Shown piece after piece: positions 13 to 9,230 of a stretch of DNA of 9,230 nucleotides (positions are counted from its first letter, which is position 1; each line of letters starts with the position of its first letter). The position numbers and the translations under genes were made by a program. The stretch is from a virus (taxonomy: Duplodnaviria; Heunggongvirae; Uroviricota; Caudoviricetes): IMG/VR virus record IMGVR_UViG_2582580966_000002; one strand, given 5' to 3'. Below the pieces are notes generated by a model. The model was not told the origin of the DNA, searched no databases, and worked only from the letters and a program-made list of their open reading frames with translations.

Positions 13-1296
13 CTATGATATGCGCTGAAATAATCCTGCCTGTCTGATACCCGGAGATGATGTCCATAGCATCGGACCACATGCACGCCACGTGCCCGGT
101 AAACGGGTCTCCCCCACATTACCGGAAGCAACCAGGGGAGTACCATCCGAAAGGCAACATGCAGACAGTGATGAGCCGGCAATGGCTGAGCCCGGTGCCA
201 TATCCCCCGAATAACTCGTCGCATAATATGCCGCAAGGACAAAAGAACCGACACCAAACAGTCCGCTGTCAGGACTTCCTGACGGTCCCTGAGGTCCTGC
301 CGGACCTGCGGCTCCCGTATCTCCTTTTGGCCCCTGAGGCCCTGCCTGACCTGCGGCTCCCGTATCCCCTTTTGGCCCCTGTGGTCCTGCCGGGCCTGCA
401 GCTCCCGTATCTCCCTTTGGCCCCTGAGGTCCTGCCGGACCTGCGGCTCCCGTATCTCCTTTTGGCCCCTGAGGTCCTGCCGGACCTGCGGCTCCCGTAT
501 CTCCTTTTGGCCCCTGAGGTCCTGCCGGGCCTGCAGCTCCCGTATCTCCCTTTGGCCCCTGAGGTCCTGCCGGACCTGCGGCTCCCGTATCTCCTTTTGG
601 CCCCTGAGGCCCTGCCTGACCTGCGGCTCCCGTATCCCCTTTTGGCCCCTGAGGCCCTGCCGGGCCTGCGGCTCCCGTATCCCCTTTTGGCCCCTGAAGC
701 CCTGCCGGGCCTGTATCCCCCTTGTCGCCCTTCGGTCCCAGTGGTCCGCCCGGATCGCCCTGCTCACCTTTCGGACCTGTATCCCCCTTATCGCCCTTGT
801 CACCTTTATCCCCTTTCGGCCCCGGTGGCCCTGCCGGGCCTGTATCGCCCTTGTCCCCCTTCTGTCCCTGTGGACCAGTTGCTCCGGTGTCGCCTTTCAG
901 TCCCTGTGGCCCCACGGCAGTTTCGGCTTTCTCAGCAGCTTCTCGCGCCCTGCGCACAGCCTCATCCGCCGCCGCTTCCAGCTTCTTCAGTGCATCAGGA
1001 TAATACGCTGCATCCGTTTCACGGAGCAGAAAGGCATTCAGGGTGCCCGGTTCGTCGTCGGCCATGACATCAATCTCGCCGGCGCATGCCGGCTGACGAC
1101 CTTCCACGCACAAGGTCACACGATAACGCCCCGGCTCAACCTGCATGCTGTAACTGCCCGTTTCGCCTGGCTGGTGCTCTGCCACCGTGGTGACTATCAC
1201 CGTCTCACTCGTTCGCGTGGCTTTCAGCTCTATGGTGCAGTCCGGTACCGGTTTTCCTGTACCATCCTTCAGCACACCTGAAATCTGTACTGACAT
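13..1296 (-). CDS. stf: Side tail fibre protein: lambda Stf-like N-terminal domain (~110 aa), collagen-like Gly-X-Y repeat region (~210 aa), short C-terminal domain (~90 aa)
   Basis: The N-terminus [43 protein letters not shown]... resembles lambda Stf ([26 protein letters not shown]...). It is followed by uninterrupted GXY triplets ([15 protein letters not shown]...). ATG at 1296-1294 verified; stop TAG at 13-15. Confidence 0.8.
286..690. repeat. Tandem array of nine 45-bp repeats (consensus cccctgaggtcctgccggacctgcggctcccgtatctccttttgg), each encoding a 15-aa collagen-like unit of the tail fibre
   Basis: Copies at 286, 331, 376, 421, 466, 511, 556, 601 and 646, read directly from the sequence. 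Copies 4, 5 and 7 are identical; copy 2 equals copy 8; copies 3 and 6 differ from each other by one base. More degenerate 9-bp Gly-X-Y periodicity continues to about 910. Confidence 0.95.
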
Positions 1297-2069
1297 ATTC
1301 CCCCCACAAAAAAGCCCACCAGAACCGGCGGGCTGTCATAACTCTGTGTTACCTGGCTATGGTAGTTCACCGTCATCTGCTGACCACCAAACTGCTCCGC
1401 ATCCACCTGCATCCCCACAATGGCCGTGTTCGGGTAGCACTGTTTCACATCGATGATTTCGGTGTATGACGACCACAGCGTTCTGTTCTGCAGCTGGTCC
1501 GTGGTGCTGTCCGCCGTCTCCCTGACCATCCGGATGTTAAAGGGGCGGGGAGGCAGATTATCCAGAATCACCGAGGCCAGGAACTGTGAGGTGGTCTTGC
1601 CGTTAATGGTGACATCCTTTTCTGTCACCCAGTTACCGTTACGCTGTAACTGAATCAGCAGACGGACAGAGGACGGATTACGGTCACCCTTTGACGTGGT
1701 CTCCACCAGTGACTGCACCCCGAAGGTCACCCGCAGGCGGTCAATGTTCGCTGACGTAATGGTGCGTGTTACCGGTTTTGCCCTGGTCACTTCGACACCC
1801 AGTACAGTTTCAGAGCCGGAGGACTCAAAGCCTTCCGGTGGTGTCTGCTCCTGCTCCCCGGCACGCCAGACCGCGGTCACACCGTGTATCACGGGATTAC
1901 CGTCCGTGTCCGTCAGCGGGGTTTTGTTCACCAGAATACTCTGCAGGCTTTTCACCGGGCCTTCTATCGGTCCCTCACCAATCGCATCAATCACGCTCAT
2001 CATCTGCGTGGATTTGAGATTGTCTTTCGCCTCACGAGGCGTGTGTGCCTTACCGCCACCTTTTCCCAT
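1269..2069 (-). pseudogene. J: Tail tip / host-specificity protein gpJ, N-terminal fragment only (~237 native codons of ~1130), then 29 codons of non-J sequence
   Basis: MGKGGGKAHTPREAKDNLKSTQMMSVIDAIGEGPIEGP...NLPPRPFNIRM...CYPNTAIVGMQVDAEQFGGQQ matches the lambda gpJ N-terminus. The remaining reading frame crosses the stf terminator and start codon and stops at 1269-1271. The ATG at 2069 is preceded by GGGAAGG. Confidence 0.85.
1308..1334 (-). terminator. Intrinsic terminator immediately upstream of the stf start (minus-strand stem AGCCCGCC/GGTGGGCT, loop GGTTCT, T6 tract)
   Basis: Minus-strand sequence agcccgccggttctggtgggctttttt read off the reverse complement of 1308-1334. The stem is 8 bp including one G-U pair. 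It is followed by GTGGGGGGAAT and the stf ATG. Confidence 0.55.
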
Positions 2070-2172
2070 ACAGCCTTCCCCTGAATAAATTAACCGCCAC
2101 TTGCCATTCCGTACAGAAGTCGGATATCCTTCGCCCGAAAAGCATGAAACACATTTCTGCCATGCTAAAGAG

Positions 2173-2202
2173 AAACCCCGGTATCAGCAGATACCGGGGT
2201 TT
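2173..2202. terminator. Bidirectional intrinsic terminator-like hairpin: perfect 12-bp stem AAACCCCGGTAT/ATACCGGGGTTT, 6-nt loop CAGCAG
   Basis: Perfect inverted repeat at 2173-2184 and 2191-2202. It is followed by TCTTTC on the plus strand and by TTTCTCTTT on the minus strand, so it could terminate in both directions. Confidence 0.6.
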
Positions 2203-2274
2203 TCTTTCATGCCCACCGATAATCCTGTTGGTTAAAACCGGTAATGGCATAAAAATTCTGAATATCTTCACATT

Positions 2275-2302
2275 TTCACAAACTGACCGTGGCGCGTATA
2301 AT
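2275..2302 (+). promoter_or_regulatory. Sigma70-type promoter: -35 TTCACA (2275-2280), 16-bp spacer, -10 TATAAT (2297-2302); AT-rich UP-like tract upstream (2246-2268)
   Basis: Hexamers read directly from the sequence: a perfect consensus -10 and a 5/6 match at -35. Predicted transcription start around 2309-2311. Confidence 0.6.
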
Positions 2303-2308
2303 TTCTCT

Positions 2309-2405
2309 GCGTTAATTTTTTTTTCGTGATATAAGAATAATTCCTTACACTTAATCTTCGTAACTCTCCCGCAGTTCCTGTCCGCGATCACTGCGGGATT
2401 TTTTT
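2309..2405 (+). ncRNA. Candidate small non-coding RNA (~95 nt) from the promoter at 2275-2302 to the terminator at 2367-2405
   Basis: Strong promoter and intrinsic terminator about 100 bp apart on the same strand. The interval has no plausible ORF (only GTG-ATA-TAA), is AU-rich, and ends in a hairpin plus U-tail, as Hfq-dependent sRNAs typically do. It runs opposite to all flanking phage genes. Confidence 0.45.
2367..2405 (+). terminator. Intrinsic terminator: 9-bp perfect stem TCCCGCAGT/ACTGCGGGA (2367-2375 / 2390-2398), 14-nt loop, T7 tract 2399-2405
   Basis: Read directly from the sequence. The T-tract is only on the plus-strand side, so it is unidirectional. The loop is longer than in typical terminators. 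Confidence 0.6.
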
Positions 2406-2412
2406 ATTCTTT

Positions 2413-3042
2413 TTACCCCTGCCGCCCGATAACCACGACCTTTCCGCCCCCGCCTTCATCACGGGTGCTGATGTCCTGGGATATACGGCGGGAGCCAACC
2501 AGCATTTCCCCGTAAGGCACCGGCATCGGGTTCCCCTGGGCAATCATGTTATCCAGCGAGGAAAAGTACGTGTTCTGTCTGCCGTTATCCGTTGCGCGGT
2601 AATCCGGTGTTTTTGCCTTCGGGGCCAGCATCTGGGCCACACCGCCCAGTATCATGCTGGCACCCAGTGAAAACAGCATCGTGGTGGCAGAAAAACCACC
2701 GGCACTCAGGGCTGTACCCCATAACGCCATCGAGCCTCCGGCCGTGAAGAAAGAGCCCACGATGGCTGCCGCCCCCAACACAATCTGCAGTCCACCCTTT
2801 CCGGCCCCGGCCAGTCGCGGCACAATGTGGATGACCGTTCCCTCACCCAGCTGTTCGTGAAGGCGGGCGTACACCACCTCCGGTGCCGTGTCTTCACCGG
2901 CAATACGTATCTGGTACCAGCCTTCGTTCATCTGAAGGCGAAAGCCCGGCATCTGCATCGACAGGGCGCGAATGGCTTCCGCTGCCGTGTTCACATACAG
3001 GCTGAGGCGGCGGCCAAATCGTTGTAAATCCCCGTGGTTGCC
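2413..3042 (-). pseudogene. I: Tail assembly protein gpI lacking its native N-terminus (~20 codons) and start codon
   Basis: ORF 2413..3078: ...GDLQRFGRRLSLYVNTAAEAIRAL...QNTYFSSLDNMIAQGN...GGGKVVVIGRQG matches lambda gpI from about residue 21 to the end. The first 15 residues of the track ORF (MMVEAVISGSTVGNH) are FII DNA in another frame. Confidence 0.85.
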
Positions 3043-3364
3043 CACGGTTGAGCCAGAGATAACAGCTTCCACCATCATCCGGCGAAACCCGGTCTATCCA
3101 GAAGTTTTCCTCACCGATGGTCAGCGTGTCTCCACGCCGCAGTTGCCGCACATCATCAGTCCGGACAAACAGGGACGGGCTGGAGCCTTCAACGCGCACG
3201 CCCTGTCCGGCATAGCTGATATTTTCAGGGTCATCAAAAACACCACGTATTACTGCGCCGGACTGCTCACCGGATGTCATGGTGGCTGACGTTCCCATGT
3301 ACCCGCGTATCGTTTCATCGGCGCGGGCAATGGCAGCATCGAACAGGTTATCGAAATCAGCCAC
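2894..3364 (-). pseudogene. FII: Head-tail connector gpFII with altered C-terminus: native residues 1 to ~108, then read-through into I-derived DNA in the wrong frame (48 foreign residues)
   Basis: ORF begins MADFDNLFDAAIARADETIRGYMGTSAT...DRVSPDDGGSCYLWLNRG, matching lambda gpFII (117 aa) up to about residue 108; the following sequence QPRGFTTIWPPPQPV... is not FII. Junction lies near 3037-3042. Confidence 0.8.
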
Positions 3365-3375
3365 AGCGCCTCCCG

Positions 3376-3771
3376 TTATTGCATTCTGGCCAGGCCGCGC
3401 TCTGTCATTTCAGCTGCCACACCGGCAGAGACACGGAACGCCGTTCCCGGCAGCACAAATGCCACAGTGTCATCCCGCGTGGCGTGAAGTGCATCAGTAT
3501 GCAGCGTCACCAGTGCCACGACCGTGACCAGAGCAGCCGTATCAATCACGGTATCCGGCTGCGCTGATACCACCTCATTTTCATGTCCGGTCAGCGCATT
3601 TTCCGGGCTGACAGATGTGTCCTGACCGGCAGCGTCATCCGTGTCATCAAGCTCCTCTTCCAGCTCTGCCACACGGAGCACCAGTTCTTCTTTCGTCCCC
3701 GTCAGGCTGACATCACGGTTCAGTTGCTCACCCAGCACCTGAAGACGGGCAATCAGTTCATCTTTCGTCAT
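3376..3771 (-). CDS. FI: DNA packaging / head completion protein gpFI
   Basis: Within ORF 3376..3810, MTKDELIARLQVLGEQLNRDVSLTGTKEEL...AAEMTERGLARMQ matches lambda gpFI; the start is the Met at residue 14 of the track ORF. Confidence 0.88.
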   Translation of the reverse strand: MTKDELIARLQVLGEQLNRDVSLTGTKEELVLRVAELEEELDDTDDAAGQDTSVSPENALTGHENEVVSAQPDTVIDTAALVTVVALVTLHTDALHATRDDTVAFVLPGTAFRVSAGVAAEMTERGLARMQ

Positions 3772-3812
3772 GGACTCCTCCACAGAGAGAAAATGGCCCC
3801 GAAGGGCCATGA

Positions 3813-4838
3813 TTACGCCAGTTGTACGGACACGAACGCATCAGGATCAGCCAGCAGCATCAGCGGTGCTGACTGAATCATGGTGAACTCACGCGCCGGA
3901 TCGCCGGTGGTCACCCAGTTTTTCGGGTAGCGGGCAGAGGCGTTAATACCTTCGCGCTGTGCGTCCGCATCCTGAATGCAGCCATAGGTGCGCAGACCGC
4001 GTGCCTGAGTGTTCCCCAGCACCATCGTGTTGTCCGGCAGGAAGTTCTTTTTGACGTCGTTTTCCACGTACTGTCCGGAATACACGACGATCGCCGTATC
4101 GCCATACATCCCCTTATAGGACACCGCTTCGCCCAGGTCTTTTACCGCTGTCTCCAGCTCGGAATTAGAGCCGCGACGGGTATCCAGCTTCTCCTTGACG
4201 GCTTTGAAGGAACGGAACAGCGCCCAGCCTTTCGGATCAAACACGATGATATTCACCACGCCGCTGGCGTTCAGCGCGTAGGCTTCGATATCGTCGGTCG
4301 GGTCATACGTGGACTTGTCACGCTTGCTCCACTCCGTGCCGCCGGACTGCGTGATGTTGTTCGCCGCACTGCGGCCCATATCCACCTCAACCGGATCGAA
4401 GGCTTCACCGGTCATGGTGTATTTGCCCTTGAGCACGGCAGAAACGGCCTGCATCTCTTCGACCTGAGCAATGGCCAGCTCTTCGTCACGCATGTTCTGC
4501 ATGATGATGCGACGGCGGCGGTAAGTCGGGTCCGCCAGATTCTGCGGATCTTCATCCGGCAGGCGACGCAGGGTCATCTGCGGATTCACTTCATGCTTGG
4601 GTTTGACATATCCCGGCGTAAATTCAGAGGTGGAGCCGCCACGGGAACGGATAACCTCACCGGAAACAATCGGCGAAACGTACAGCGCCATGTTTACCAG
4701 TCCCGGAATTTGTGAGAGATAGACTTTCTCCGTAGTGAAGGGATAGCTCTCACGGAAAAAGAGACGCAGAAACAGCGGATCAAACTTAAATTTCTGCTCA
4801 TTTGCCGCCAGCAGCTGGGCGGTTGTGTACATCGACAT
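3813..4838 (-). CDS. E: Major capsid protein gpE
   Basis: 341-aa ORF MSMYTTAQLLAANEQKFKFDPLFLRLFFRESYPF...DAFVSVQLA matches lambda gpE in length and sequence; ATG at 4838-4836 verified. Confidence 0.93.
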   Translation of the reverse strand: MSMYTTAQLLAANEQKFKFDPLFLRLFFRESYPFTTEKVYLSQIPGLVNMALYVSPIVSGEVIRSRGGSTSEFTPGYVKPKHEVNPQMTLRRLPDEDPQNLADPTYRRRRIIMQNMRDEELAIAQVEEMQAVSAVLKGKYTMTGEAFDPVEVDMGRSAANNITQSGGTEWSKRDKSTYDPTDDIEAYALNASGVVNIIVFDPKGWALFRSFKAVKEKLDTRRGSNSELETAVKDLGEAVSYKGMYGDTAIVVYSGQYVENDVKKNFLPDNTMVLGNTQARGLRTYGCIQDADAQREGINASARYPKNWVTTGDPAREFTMIQSAPLMLLADPDAFVSVQLA

Positions 4839-4893
4839 AAAAAAATCCCGTAAAAAAAGCCGAACAGGCGGCCTTTAGTGATGAAGGGTAAAG

Positions 4894-5226
4894 TTAAACG
4901 ATGCTGATTGCCGTTCCGGCAAACGCGGTCCGTTTTTTCGTCTCGTCGCTGGCAGCCTCCGGCCAGAGCACATCCTCATAACGGAACGTGCCGGACTTGT
5001 AGAACGTCAGCGTGGTGCTGGTCTGGTCAGCAGCAACCGCAAGAATGCCAACGGCAGCACCGTCGGTGGTGCCATCCCACGCAACCAGCTTACGGGTGGA
5101 GGTGTCCAGCATCAGCGGGGTCATTGCAGGCGCTTTCGCACTCAATCCGCCGGGCGCGGTTGCGGTATGAGCCGGGTCACTGTTGCCCAGCGGCTGGTAA
5201 TGGGTAAAGGTTTCTTTGCTCGTCAT
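4894..5226 (-). CDS. D: Head decoration protein gpD
   Basis: [27 protein letters not shown]...[10 protein letters not shown], 110 aa, matches lambda gpD. The track ORF starts two codons upstream (MFM...). Confidence 0.92.
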
Positions 5227-5235
5227 AAACATCCC

Positions 5236-5841
5236 TTACACTGGTGTGTTCAGCAAATCGTTAACGGCATCAGATGCCAGGTTACCTGCAGCCAGCGGTG
5301 CCGGTGCCCCCTGCATCAGACGATCCAGCGCAGTATCACTGCGCGCCTGTGCACTCTGTGGTGCTGCGGCCAGAATGCGGCGGGCCGTTTCCACGGTCAT
5401 ACCGGGGGGTTCTGCCAGCACGCGGGCCTGTTCTTCGCGTCCGTGAGCCTCCTCACAGTTGAGGATCCCCATAATGCGGCTGTTTTCTGCCGCAACCGCA
5501 GCGTTGATCTGCGCGTTCACGTCCGGCTGCGCCGCGCTGGCGTTTTCGCCCTCCATCGCTGGCACCACGCCAGTAACGTCAGCCTGCGAAGCAGTGGCTG
5601 AAACAGTTGTTGATTGAGTCTCTTTGGTCATTCGCCCTCCTGAGAGACGGGATTTACGTGCATCCAGTGCATCACGCATGATGGTGATCGCATCGGTACT
5701 GTTAACAAGTTCATCAGCCAGTCCGGCATCAATGGCCTCCTGACCGCTGTACACTGCAGCCTCGGTATCCAGCACAGCCTGCACGGACAGGCCGGTATAT
5801 GCCGACACCTTCTGTGCAAACATCCGGCGGGTTGCATCCAT
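5236..5841 (-). CDS. Nu3: Scaffolding protein Nu3, in-frame internal start within C
   Basis: ATG at 5841-5839 (verified on the sequence) begins MDATRRMFAQKVSAYTGLSVQ... in the C frame; 201 codons to the shared stop, as for lambda Nu3. Confidence 0.75.
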   Translation of the reverse strand: MDATRRMFAQKVSAYTGLSVQAVLDTEAAVYSGQEAIDAGLADELVNSTDAITIMRDALDARKSRLSGGRMTKETQSTTVSATASQADVTGVVPAMEGENASAAQPDVNAQINAAVAAENSRIMGILNCEEAHGREEQARVLAEPPGMTVETARRILAAAPQSAQARSDTALDRLMQGAPAPLAAGNLASDAVNDLLNTPV

Positions 5842-6555
5842 CCGGGACTGCAGTGTTTCCCGGACATCATCCGGTAGATGGCTGTAGGGGTTGCCATCCA
5901 CCTTATGGCTGCCGCTGTAAATCAGCGTGATTTCCACGCCCTGTTTCTCCAGCGCAGCACCGTAATTACTGTGAGCCATCATGACGCCGATGGAGCCTGT
6001 CCGGGCGGTCTGCGTGACCAGACGCCGGGAGGCGGCACTGGCAAGCAGCTGACCTGCGCTGCAGTTCATGTCATTGGCCAGCGCCCATACCGGCTTTATG
6101 TCACGCACACGGGCGATGATGTCAGCGCAGTCAAATGCCCCTGCCACCATTCCGCCGGGCGTGTCCATATCCAGCAGAATGCCGTCCACCATCGGGTCGC
6201 TGGCAGCCTGTTGCAGACGGGCGATAATGCCGTTGTAACCAGTCATCCCCGAATACGGCTGCAGCGCCCGCGTCCGGCAGACCAGCGTGCCGGAAACCGG
6301 CAGCACGGCGATGCCGTTCATGACCTGATAACTGCGGGCCTGTCGTGGTCCGTCATCATTAACGGATAACGCCAGCTTCGCGGGTGCCTCTCCGGCAGTC
6401 AGGCTGTCACCGGACACCGCATCCGTCAGGCGGCTGATCCCAAGCTGGCCTGCAAGCGCACAAAAGAAAACCCGCGCATAGGCGGGTTCAAGCATAAGCG
6501 GCTCATTAAAGGCCATGCTGGCAATATGCGGGAGATTACGCAGCTCTGCTGTCAC
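5236..6555 (-). CDS. C: Head maturation protease / scaffold processing protein gpC
   Basis: ORF 5236..6690 contains VTAELRNLPHIASMAFNEPLMLEPAYARVFF...AVNDLLNTPV, matching lambda gpC (439 aa). The native start is the GTG at 6555-6553, giving 439 codons and a 20-nt overlap with the B stop; the upstream part of the track ORF is B read in another frame. Confidence 0.9.
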   Translation of the reverse strand: MTAELRNLPHIASMAFNEPLMLEPAYARVFFCALAGQLGISRLTDAVSGDSLTAGEAPAKLALSVNDDGPRQARSYQVMNGIAVLPVSGTLVCRTRALQPYSGMTGYNGIIARLQQAASDPMVDGILLDMDTPGGMVAGAFDCADIIARVRDIKPVWALANDMNCSAGQLLASAASRRLVTQTARTGSIGVMMAHSNYGAALEKQGVEITLIYSGSHKVDGNPYSHLPDDVRETLQSRMDATRRMFAQKVSAYTGLSVQAVLDTEAAVYSGQEAIDAGLADELVNSTDAITIMRDALDARKSRLSGGRMTKETQSTTVSATASQADVTGVVPAMEGENASAAQPDVNAQINAAVAAENSRIMGILNCEEAHGREEQARVLAEPPGMTVETARRILAAAPQSAQARSDTALDRLMQGAPAPLAAGNLASDAVNDLLNTPV

Positions 6556-7708
6556 TCTTCTCCTCCTCTGTTGATTGTCGCAGTCCGGATTCAAATGCCG
6601 CAGCCGCCCAGGCGGGCGGTTTAAGACCGGCTGCACGGCGCTCCATCGTTTCACGGACCTGCTGGGCAAAAATTTCCTGATAGTCGTCACCGCGTTTTGC
6701 GCACTCTTTCTCGTAGGTACTCAGTCCGGCTTCTATCAGCATCACCGCTTCCTGTACTTCTTTCAGACCATCGATGGCCATACGACCGGAGCCTATCCAG
6801 TCACAGTTCCCCCAGGCGCTGCGGGCTTCCTGAAAGCTGAAACGCGCTTTTGAAGGTAACGTCACCACGCGGCGAACGATGGCCTCTTCCAGCCAGCACA
6901 GAAACATCTGGCTCGCCTGACGGGATGCGACGAATTTTCGCCGCCCCATAAAGTACGCCCACGACTCGTTCGCACTGGCCCGTGCCGTGGAATAGCTCAT
7001 CTGGGCGTAATTCCGGGAAAGCTGCTCATACGAGACACCCAGCCCGGCAGCGATATACCGCAACAGTGACTGCTCAAACACGGAGTAGCCGTTATCCGTA
7101 TCCTGAGCCGTCTGCAGGTTCAGTGAGTCACCCGGCATCAGGTGCGGCACTTTTGCGCCTCCCAGCCGAACCGGTGCTGCGGCGTAATACGCGGCAATTT
7201 CACCAATCCAGCCGGTCAGCTTGTCCCGCTGCTCCTGACTGTTCGCGCCCAGAATAAAATCCATCGCTGACTGCGTATCCAGCTCACTCTCAATGGTGGC
7301 GGCATACATCGCCTTCACAATGGCGCTCTGCAGCTGCGTGTTCTGCAGCGTGTCGAGCATCTTCATCTGCTCCATCACGCTGTAAAACACATTTGCACCG
7401 CGGGTCTGCCCGTCCTCCACGGGTTCAAAAACGTGAATGAACGAGGCGCGCCCGCCGGGTAACTCACGGGGTATCCATGTCCATTTCTGCGGCATCCAGC
7501 CAGGATAGCCGTCCTCGCTGACGTAATATCCCAGCGCCGCACCGCTGTCATTAATCTGCACACCGGCACGGCAGTTCCGGCTGTCGCCGGTATTGTTCGG
7601 GTTGCTGATGCGCTTCGGGCTGACCATCCGGAACTGTGTCCGGAAAAGCCACGACGGACTGGTATCCCAGGTGGCCTGAACGAACAGTTCACCGTTAAAG
7701 GCGTGCAT
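6536..7708 (-). pseudogene. B: Portal protein gpB, N-terminally truncated (~140 codons missing; remnant begins at MHAFNGELFVQATWDT)
   Basis: ORF 6536..7732 (the track start is a TTG; first ATG at 7708-7706). The protein from MHAFNGELFV to ...STEEEKSDSRAA matches the C-terminal ~390 residues of lambda gpB (533 aa). It lacks its own start region and ribosome-binding site, and lies in the same frame as A immediately after the A stop codon. Confidence 0.85.
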
Positions 7709-7751
7709 GCAGTGCCGCACGGGCAGCGGCAAGTTCTTCCTGTCGCGTCAT
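7695..7751 (-). pseudogene. W: Head-tail joining gene W remnant: first 15 codons only ([15 protein letters not shown]), then 3 foreign codons and TAA
   Basis: Hand translation of the minus strand from ATG 7751-7749 gives [18 protein letters not shown]-stop. The first 15 residues equal the lambda gpW N-terminus ([21 protein letters not shown]...); sequence after codon 15 is B-derived, read out of frame. Confidence 0.8.
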
Positions 7752-9230
7752 TCATCCTCTCCGGATAAGGCACGGGCGTAATCTGCCAGTGTTTTCTTGT
7801 TGGTTGCTGCACCATCCTCTTCCTTCAGGCTCGCCAGCAGTGCACTGAGATCCAGCTGCCAGCGGGAAATACTGATGCGCAGCGCCGCCAGCGCATAAAC
7901 GAAGCAGTCGAGCGCCTCATTGCGTCGTTTTTTGCTGTCCCACAGTATTTTTTTCCTGCCATCCACCCATTTTTCGACCTGCTCTTCAGCCGTCAGCTGC
8001 TGCGCTTCGGTCAGATCAAAAATATCCGGGTTATTCGGGAAGTGAACGGCACCGGGAAGCGGTTCATCCCCTTCCGGCGTCAGTGTGAAGCGGTTATAAA
8101 TCTGCTCTTTCGCGGTATCCGTACCGATTTCGGTAAGGTAAACCCCGTTTTTGTTTCGCTTACGTGGCATGCTGGCCACCGGCTTTCCGTAGACGGATGC
8201 CCCTTTAATGGGGATCCCCCGGAACAGCCCATGTTTTTTCGAGCGTTCATACACGATGGTCGGGTCAATCCCGCCAGTATCCCAGCAGATACGGGATACC
8301 GACATTTCTGCACCATTCCGGCGGGTATAGGTTTTATTGATGGCCTCATCCACACGCAGCAGCGTCTGTTCATCGTCGTGGCGGCCCATAATAATCTGCC
8401 GATCAATCAGCCAGCTTTCCTCACCCGGCCCCCATCCCCATACGCGCATTTCGTAGCGATCCAGCTGGGAGTCGATACCGGCGGTCAGGTAAGCCACACG
8501 GTCAGGAACGGGCGCTGAATAATGCTCTTTCCGCTCTGCCATCACTTCAGCATCCGGACGTTCGCCAATTTTCGCCTCCCACGTCTCACCGAGCGTGGTG
8601 TTTACGAAGGTTTTACGTTTTCCCGTATCCCCTTTCGTTTTCATCCAGTCTTTGACAATCTGCACCCAGGTGGTGAACGGGCTGTACGCTGTCCAGATGT
8701 GAAAGGTCACACTGTCAGGTGGCTCAATCTCTTCACCGGATGACGAAAACCAGAGAATGCCATCACGGGTCCAGATCCCGGTCTTTTCGCAGATATAACG
8801 GGCATCAGTAAAGTCCAGCTCCTGCTGGCAGATGACGCAGGCATTATGCTCGCAGAGATAAAACACGCTGGAGGGGTCATCCGGCGTCCATTTGAGGCCA
8901 AACGGCGTCTCTTTGTCGCCAAATTTAAGATACTGCTCCTCCCCGCAGTGCGGGCAGGCAACATGAAAACGCATAAAATGCGGGGATTCACTGGCTGCAC
9001 GCTCAATCTGGCAGGTGCCTCTCACTTTGGGCGTGGAGCCACGGATGGACTTTGGCCAGACCGAGCCTTCAATACGCTTATCGCCCAGGAACGTCGGAGA
9101 GCCTTCCTGTTCAATATCCTCATCAAAGGCAGCAAGTTCATCATACCCCGCCACATCCACTGACTTTTCACGGTAGTTTTTTGCCGCTTTACCGCCCAGG
9201 CACCAGAAGCCACGACCATTGGAAAAACGC
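7748..9230 (-). CDS. A: Terminase large subunit gpA, 3' portion (N-terminal ~150 codons lie beyond the window edge)
   Basis: ORF 7748..9160 and its open upstream extension to the window edge (frame hand-translated to ...RFSNGRGFWCLGGKAAKNYREKS before the GTG at 9160). The C-terminus ...KKTLADYARALSGEDE matches lambda gpA as I recall it. Stop TGA at 7748-7750 overlaps the W ATG (7749-7751) as in lambda. Confidence 0.9.
   Translation of the reverse strand, partial: RFSNGRGFWCLGGKAAKNYREKSVDVAGYDELAAFDEDIEQEGSPTFLGDKRIEGSVWPKSIRGSTPKVRGTCQIERAASESPHFMRFHVACPHCGEEQYLKFGDKETPFGLKWTPDDPSSVFYLCEHNACVICQQELDFTDARYICEKTGIWTRDGILWFSSSGEEIEPPDSVTFHIWTAYSPFTTWVQIVKDWMKTKGDTGKRKTFVNTTLGETWEAKIGERPDAEVMAERKEHYSAPVPDRVAYLTAGIDSQLDRYEMRVWGWGPGEESWLIDRQIIMGRHDDEQTLLRVDEAINKTYTRRNGAEMSVSRICWDTGGIDPTIVYERSKKHGLFRGIPIKGASVYGKPVASMPRKRNKNGVYLTEIGTDTAKEQIYNRFTLTPEGDEPLPGAVHFPNNPDIFDLTEAQQLTAEEQVEKWVDGRKKILWDSKKRRNEALDCFVYALAALRISISRWQLDLSALLASLKEEDGAATNKKTLADYARALSGEDE

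Follow-up and report, generated by a model that had tools for sequence, protein, structure and literature searches.

We have analysed a stretch of 9,230 nt (the window) in which the 5' part of a lambda-type FII gene runs directly into the 3' part of gene I, and our data support that this FII::I junction is the mark of one single deletion of ~7 kb. Taken overall, the best explanation, and one that we hold with high confidence, is that the junction is a microhomology-deletion scar in a defective prophage specific to one Escherichia coli clone. The window corresponds to the entire contig JMGU01000151.1 of assembly GCA_000687025.1, from the commensal E. coli strain 2_011_08_S3_C2, a faecal isolate of a Tanzanian child aged 2 years (Table S1 of Richter et al., mSphere 2018, PMC6222053).

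According to the six-frame ORF list and the comparison with lambda (NC_001416), the gene set of the window is that of a lambda-type late operon on the minus strand, and the window contains late genes only. Both sources identify the 3' part of A (9160..7748), a fragment of the portal gene B (7732..6536), C/Nu3 (6690..5236), D (5232..4894), E (4838..3813) and FI (3810..3376). These are followed, on the same strand, by the FII::I fusion ORF, the remnant of I, an I-J spacer, a truncated J and an intact stf with collagen-like repeats (13..1296, ORF list and Pfam). The reading frames of A, C/Nu3, D, E, FI, stf and the I remnant are intact. The window shares with lambda the order A-(W)-B-C-Nu3-D-E-FI-FII ... 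I-J-stf and a head module that is 97-98% identical at the DNA level. Three segments of lambda are missing from it, namely W with the 5' end of B, the stretch Z to K, and lom with the 3' part of J. At the DNA level its alleles of I, J and stf reach only 70-79% identity with lambda, and its I-J spacer has 343 nt compared with 60 nt in lambda.

Undeleted counterparts of this operon exist. The prophages of S1-CAM-01-A (NZ_CP145714.1) and 23CRST047 (NZ_AP045820.1) occupy the same ykgJ-potB site and align collinearly with the window at 97-99.8% identity; unlike the window, they still have the nine tail genes, W and lom, and their B and J are full-length, with stf also present. The chromosomal site is seen in the clone-mate locus L009, where the remnant is followed by ykgJ-potB-potA-pepT-roxA-phoQ in a flank that is 99.9% identical to 23CRST047 and 98.8% identical to S1-CAM-01-A, and where ordinary lambdoid NinE-RusA-Q genes lie upstream. 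The window is collinear in three blocks with the intact prophage at this site: positions 7709..3034 correspond to 14111..18776 of the S1-CAM-01-A prophage (locus L003), and positions 3036..1355 correspond, without gaps, to 25743..27424.

The window and the S1-CAM-01-A prophage are 100% identical on either side of the junction, for 97 nt towards FII and for 77 nt towards K/I, and the two matches overlap by 3 nt, CAC. Since the flanking matches have E = 0 and the two flanks are identical to one parent, this pattern lies far beyond chance. The FII parent reads ...GGGCAACCAC up to the breakpoint and CCGCTG... after it, the K/I parent reads ...TGCCTTCAC and then GGGGAT..., and the window reads ...GGGCAACCACGGGGAT... 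across the join; the 28-nt junction sequence is CCGTGGGCAACCACGGGGATTTACAACG. An earlier, sequence-only reading of this DNA had set the breakpoint near 3037-3042 and proposed an alignment that would locate it and reveal any microhomology. The parental alignment does so: the breakpoint lies at 3036-3034, in the CAC shared by both parents, which is also the His20 codon of I. The deletion measures 6,969 bp against the S1-CAM-01-A prophage and 6,965 bp against that of 23CRST047, both sizes being relative to these relatives, as the closest intact prophages show 1-3% divergence from the window beyond the junction flanks and the true parent is therefore unsampled. Measured against lambda, the deletion amounts to ~6.9 kb.

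Lost in the deletion are the last seven codons of FII, eight complete genes (Z, U, V, G, T, H, M and L), K apart from 43 nt at its 3' end and, from I, the native ATG with the first 19 codons. The 3' end of K (last 14 codons plus stop, 2991..3033, minus strand, from the alignment with relatives) survives because K overlaps I, and the native start and 19 codons of I are gone because the CAC microhomology is the His20 codon. In agreement with this, tblastn with the proteins of the 23CRST047 prophage found in the window FII residues 1-110 (100% identity), the whole 193-aa I annotated by PGAP, J residues 7-250 and B residues 144-533, and Z, U, V, G, T, H, M, L, K, W and lom were undetectable. The FII gene of lambda ends at 7965 and is separated from I, which starts at 14773, by exactly nine genes (Z, U, V, G, T, H, M, L and K); this bears out the nine genes and roughly 7 kb given in the sequence-only reading. 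None of the nine was found as a gene, as had been claimed, but the 43-nt stub of K is still there; likewise, the loss had been described as that of the tail-shaft module, and the genes are indeed gone, but M, L and K are tail-tip genes and not part of the shaft. The homology to lambda (97%) stops within FII at window position 3051 (lambda 7925) and restarts in the K/I overlap at 3035 (lambda 14831), with 70% identity. The 15 nt that do not align to lambda (3050-3036) were considered as filler DNA, a possibility that we rejected because they are the FII 3' allele of the lineage, 100% identical to S1-CAM-01-A.

The fusion ORF had been correctly described at 2894..3364 on the minus strand; in the ORF list it has 156 aa and starts with GTG. 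The proposal that FII is native and then runs out of frame also stands, although the counts of about 108 native codons and a new tail of 48 residues have to be replaced by 110 and 46, respectively. The 110 native residues (3035..3364, minus strand, tblastn) end in ...CYLWLNRGQP and are 100% identical to FII of the intact relatives. Full-length FII has 117 aa, and its native C-terminus PAVNRRR (seven codons) is replaced by 46 out-of-frame residues, read in a third frame that is neither that of K nor that of I and that stops at 2894. The fusion ORF matches PF05354 (Phage_attach) over residues 8-105 with 70.2 bits (cut-off 26) and aligns to residues 1-111 of lambda gpFII (1K0H) with E = 4.5e-68. 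This ORF is a by-product of the deletion, and we see no reason to expect it to be functional.

On the other side of the junction, the I remnant runs from His20 to the stop codon (2413..3036, minus strand). It matches PF06805 (Lambda_tail_I) over profile positions 9-83 of 83 with 54.3 bits (cut-off 23.8) and lambda gpI (8IYK chain I) from residue 19-20 to 223 with E = 9e-87, and it lacks the native start codon and a complete N-terminal domain. The sequence downstream of FII had been read as I-derived from about residue 21, and His20/Gly21 is indeed where I begins. In the intact relatives, the lambda-type ATG of I lies inside K and the frame reads MATTNAFCLASPPLARICLH-GDLQRFGRR..., to be compared with MAATHTLPLASPGMARICLY-GDLQRFGRR... 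in lambda. The statement that I has no start codon of its own is right for the native ATG, which was deleted, but in-frame surrogates are present: upstream of the remnant, the I frame has no stop codon before an ATG-ATG pair at 3078/3075, in DNA that comes from FII, and there is a GTG at 2994. The former gives a chimeric ORF of 221 aa (2413..3078, minus strand, ORF list and translation against the relatives) that begins with 14 residues, MMVEAVISGSTVGN, encoded by FII-derived DNA in another frame, and continues with I from residue 20, HGDLQRF. Gene callers start I at the GTG at 2994 (193 aa) in deleted and intact prophages alike.

The RefSeq/PGAP annotation of the intact relatives likewise places a 193-aa I at a GTG at the K stop codon (position 25785 in L003, 12043 in L004 and 33782 in L015). 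We considered taking this 193-aa product as a sign of an intact I and rejected it, given that the relatives have a conserved lambda-type ATG 30 codons upstream and that their N-terminal residues match lambda gpI. As these upstream residues are conserved with lambda gpI (223 aa), the comparisons indicate that the GTG-started protein is an under-call and that the annotated start lies too far downstream. Neither the 156-aa "tail attachment domain protein" (KDA76773.1 and others) nor the I ORF of the window is a new protein; both are deletion artefacts.

Two further deletions affect the same operon. The matches of the head module cover 6,180 bases of the window against a span of 6,769 bases in the relatives, and the 589 bp that are gone extend from codon 16 of W to codon 144 of B, that is, they include the first ~143 codons of the portal gene. 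This W/B junction (7706..7709; parental alignment, tblastn and Pfam) carries the microhomology CATG, and the remaining portal ORF of 390-398 aa matches only positions 110-354 of the Pfam portal model. The other deletion, of ~3.3 kb (3,345 bp against strain 14EC001), took J after codon ~238-250 and all of lom. Its junction, with the microhomology TA (1357..1358; comparison with relatives and tblastn), fuses the truncated J to a point 2-3 nt past the lom stop codon and 63 nt upstream of stf, giving a 266-aa ORF of ~238 native J codons plus an out-of-frame tail (1269..2069, minus strand; ORF list, tblastn and Pfam); it is absent from all the complete E. coli genomes examined. These additional deletions have thus destroyed the portal and the tail tip too. 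With three deletions in the window, a point missed in the sequence-only reading, the element is plainly a multiply defective remnant.

The distribution of the FII::I junction is very narrow. It is absent from 50,697 phage records and from 5,426 complete E. coli genomes, none of which reached the presence criterion (at least 80% coverage of window positions 2400-3400 at one place), and the 28-nt junction probe has no match in the GTDB species representatives or the JGI metagenome contigs; a natural FII-I arrangement, which we considered as an alternative, was found in none of these collections. The probe matches four IMG/VR contigs, and the exact 156-aa fusion protein occurs on only seven contigs (NCBI) in a collection of 15 billion proteins, each belonging to an E. 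coli draft genome of this one Tanzanian cohort. All five of the carriers that Table S1 lists (JMGU, JNRH, JNRI, JNRL and JNRW) are recorded there as 43/A/NT:H10 and come from three children sampled on 17-24 April 2009 (PMC6222053); we have taken these columns as MLST ST43, phylogroup A and serotype NT:H10. The carriers are identical over window positions 3986..1358 (and on to 900 in nine of the ten loci), save at position 2323. This position, which sits in an AT-rich spacer, is the only one in 3986..900 at which the window differs from all nine other carrier loci, and it is either a private SNP or a sequencing error. Because the carriers are identical across the junction and restricted to one ST43 clone, the FII::I deletion is one event inherited in one clone, neither recurrent nor widely fixed. 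A comparison with related prophages had been suggested in the sequence-only reading as a way of telling a deletion fixed in a lineage from a strain-specific one, and it shows a clone-specific deletion with intact prophages at the same site elsewhere. The two findings named there as contrary to a deletion did not appear either: the sequence downstream of FII is derived from I, and no phage record or complete genome has the FII-I arrangement naturally.

Regarding the mechanism, all three junctions are seamless and carry microhomologies of 2-4 nt. For random blunt joins the expected distribution (Roth-Wilson) is P(k) = (k+1)(1/4)^k(3/4)^2, from which we calculated chances of ~0.016, 0.05 and 0.16 of finding at least 4, 3 and 2 nt, respectively; given these probabilities, the set of junctions is enriched for microhomology, the pattern that characterizes RecA-independent illegitimate recombination. 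At each junction a short sequence is present at both breakpoints and one copy is kept, and at the FII::I junction there is no long homology, IS or site-specific recombination site. We therefore looked upon the window as follows. A lambda-like prophage next to ykgJ-potB is decaying by deletion, and one event of RecA-independent illegitimate recombination between two CACs 6,969 bp apart, with one copy kept, joined FII to I; for the molecular pathway we infer either replication slippage or microhomology-mediated end joining. By this event the tail genes from Z to K were lost, the head-completion protein FII acquired a different C-terminus, and the tail-tip assembly protein I was deprived of its start and its first beta-strand region. 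In the same late operon, two more microhomology deletions took W together with the 5' end of B, and lom together with the 3' part of J. With all three deletions neither heads nor tails would be made, and the production of virions of its own has probably been lost.

Other origins of the junction have to be weighed against this one. A chimeric contig that misjoined FII to I would produce the same sequence, and the window is in fact a short contig of 9.2 kb, while every carrier is a draft assembled from short reads within a single sequencing project, which limits the independence of the assemblies. However, the identical junction is found in at least seven separate assemblies, of isolates from three children, and in three upstream contexts, two of the carriers lying within contigs of 34 kb and 86 kb with chromosomal flanks; besides, the 3 nt shared by both sides are far too short for a repeat-induced misjoin, and we regard an assembly artefact as extremely unlikely. 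A real deletion could in turn have arisen by unequal homologous recombination, or by an IS-mediated adjacent deletion, between two prophages. E. coli genomes harbour several lambdoid prophages whose tail genes are similar (with a median of three matching places per genome), and the remnant of L010 lies beside a different flank (int-yfdC-mlaA-fadL), suggesting prophage-prophage rearrangement elsewhere in the clone. Against this route, the parental alignment shows no homology between FII and the K/I overlap beyond CAC, both sides of the junction match one and the same prophage, and its surroundings (window 2700-3400) contain neither repeats, direct or inverted, nor remnants of an IS, for which reason an IS- or repeat-mediated deletion was rejected; that two prophages recombined in this way is hardly probable.

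A different kind of proposal takes the tail-less state as natural, the element being a satellite like the capsid-forming PICIs, or a complementable head-only prophage, that packages itself and borrows the tails of a co-resident lambdoid phage. Lambda heads and tails are made separately and can join, and the ORFs of terminase A, C/Nu3, D, E and FI are intact in the window. Moreover, capsid-forming PICIs that use helper tails exist (bioRxiv 10.1101/2025.02.11.637232), and the window resembles them in having head and packaging genes without tail genes. A complete head, portal and connector module would be expected of such an element, whereas here the portal lacks its first ~143 residues, W is deleted and FII, the tail-docking protein, is truncated and frame-shifted, which is not how a satellite is built. 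The window lacks its tail genes through a scar in what was a full prophage: its flanks match an ordinary, full-length prophage of the same att site with 100% identity, the clone-mates went on to lose most of the head module, and the element is limited to one clone. A natural tail-less element is thus exceedingly improbable. The surviving intact late genes may still be expressed or retained for some use. It is nevertheless very unlikely that the remnant late genes (terminase A, C/Nu3, D, E, FI, the chimeric I', stf and tfa) are kept for use, be it as spare parts for co-resident lambdoid prophages, through recombination or complementation, or, in an ancestor with the FII::I deletion only, through tail-less filled heads rescued by the tails of another phage.

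In the clone-mates, decay has gone further. The loci L009 and L010 (with L007 and L005 as their IMG/VR counterparts) have lost the segment from the 5' end of a SASA-family esterase gene to codon ~280 of E, and in L006 codon ~82 of A is joined to the same E position and the truncated J is joined directly to the tfa region, without stf. As all these variants share the FII::I junction, this deletion predates them. The joins of the head deletions are located at 3590-4065 in L009, 788-1264 in L010 and 1-307 in L006, and the J'-tfa join of L006 uses the same J breakpoint. Two different left partners, the esterase gene and A, are thus joined to E at the same nucleotide (window 3986-3988, ...TATGGCTGC), which suggests either successive deletions re-using an old junction or a local hotspot. 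In L010 (5700-8988) and L006 (2931-6621), the remnant adjoins an integrase gene and yfdC-mlaA-fadL and not ykgJ-potB; this altered flank implies an inversion, a prophage-prophage exchange or a second copy.

Defective or cryptic lambdoid prophages, such as DLP12, Rac and Qin of K-12 and the pool of O157:H7, have been inactivated by internal deletions, with scattered late genes left intact. The remnant described here has the same features, being collinear with an intact prophage at the same site and having lost genes essential for the virion. It differs from the DLP12/Rac/Qin type in being young and limited to one clone, and in that its undeleted counterpart is still found at the same site in other strains, allowing the deletions to be mapped to the base.

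The window has some other features that touch on its non-coding and repetitive DNA. The I-J spacer (2070-2412, 343 nt, minus strand) was considered as an insertion and rejected as such, since it is gap-free and collinear with the intact relatives (L003 among them) and hence native to the lineage; it is conserved in these relatives and absent from lambda. On the plus strand at 2275-2407 it contains a near-consensus sigma-70 promoter-like sequence, TTCACA-16-TATAAT (11 of 12 matches), antisense to the late operon, with a terminator-like hairpin and T-run at 2381-2407, ~80 nt downstream of it. A putative small antisense transcript of ~100 nt is possible from these motifs; the region has no Rfam match and a fold z-score of -2.2, and the Rfam scan of the whole window gave nothing at gathering scores, with chance-level matches only, in the spacer. 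The spacer also holds a perfect 13-nt inverted repeat with a 4-nt loop (2173-2202; AAACCCCGGTATC / GATACCGGGGTTT), which, because CTCTTT follows it on the late-operon strand, may be a weak terminator or processing site. In stf, a 45-bp tandem repeat at 287-713 (9.5 copies, 93% matches) encodes collagen-like Gly-X-Y of Stf, and the Stf ORFs of the clone-mates (397, 412, 427 and 442 aa) differ from each other by whole units of 15 aa; these length differences are either real variation in copy number or the collapse of repeats in short-read assemblies.

Finally, the FII::I deletion is a real but ordinary step of prophage decay, in an object of a well-known kind, and it has little significance beyond annotation, where the contig should be read as a multiply deleted prophage remnant. 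What it offers is a base-resolved example of stepwise prophage decay inside one gut clone. With at least 4-5 distinct microhomology deletions among isolates from three children within one month, it could serve as a small data point on the rate and mechanism of prophage erosion in nature.
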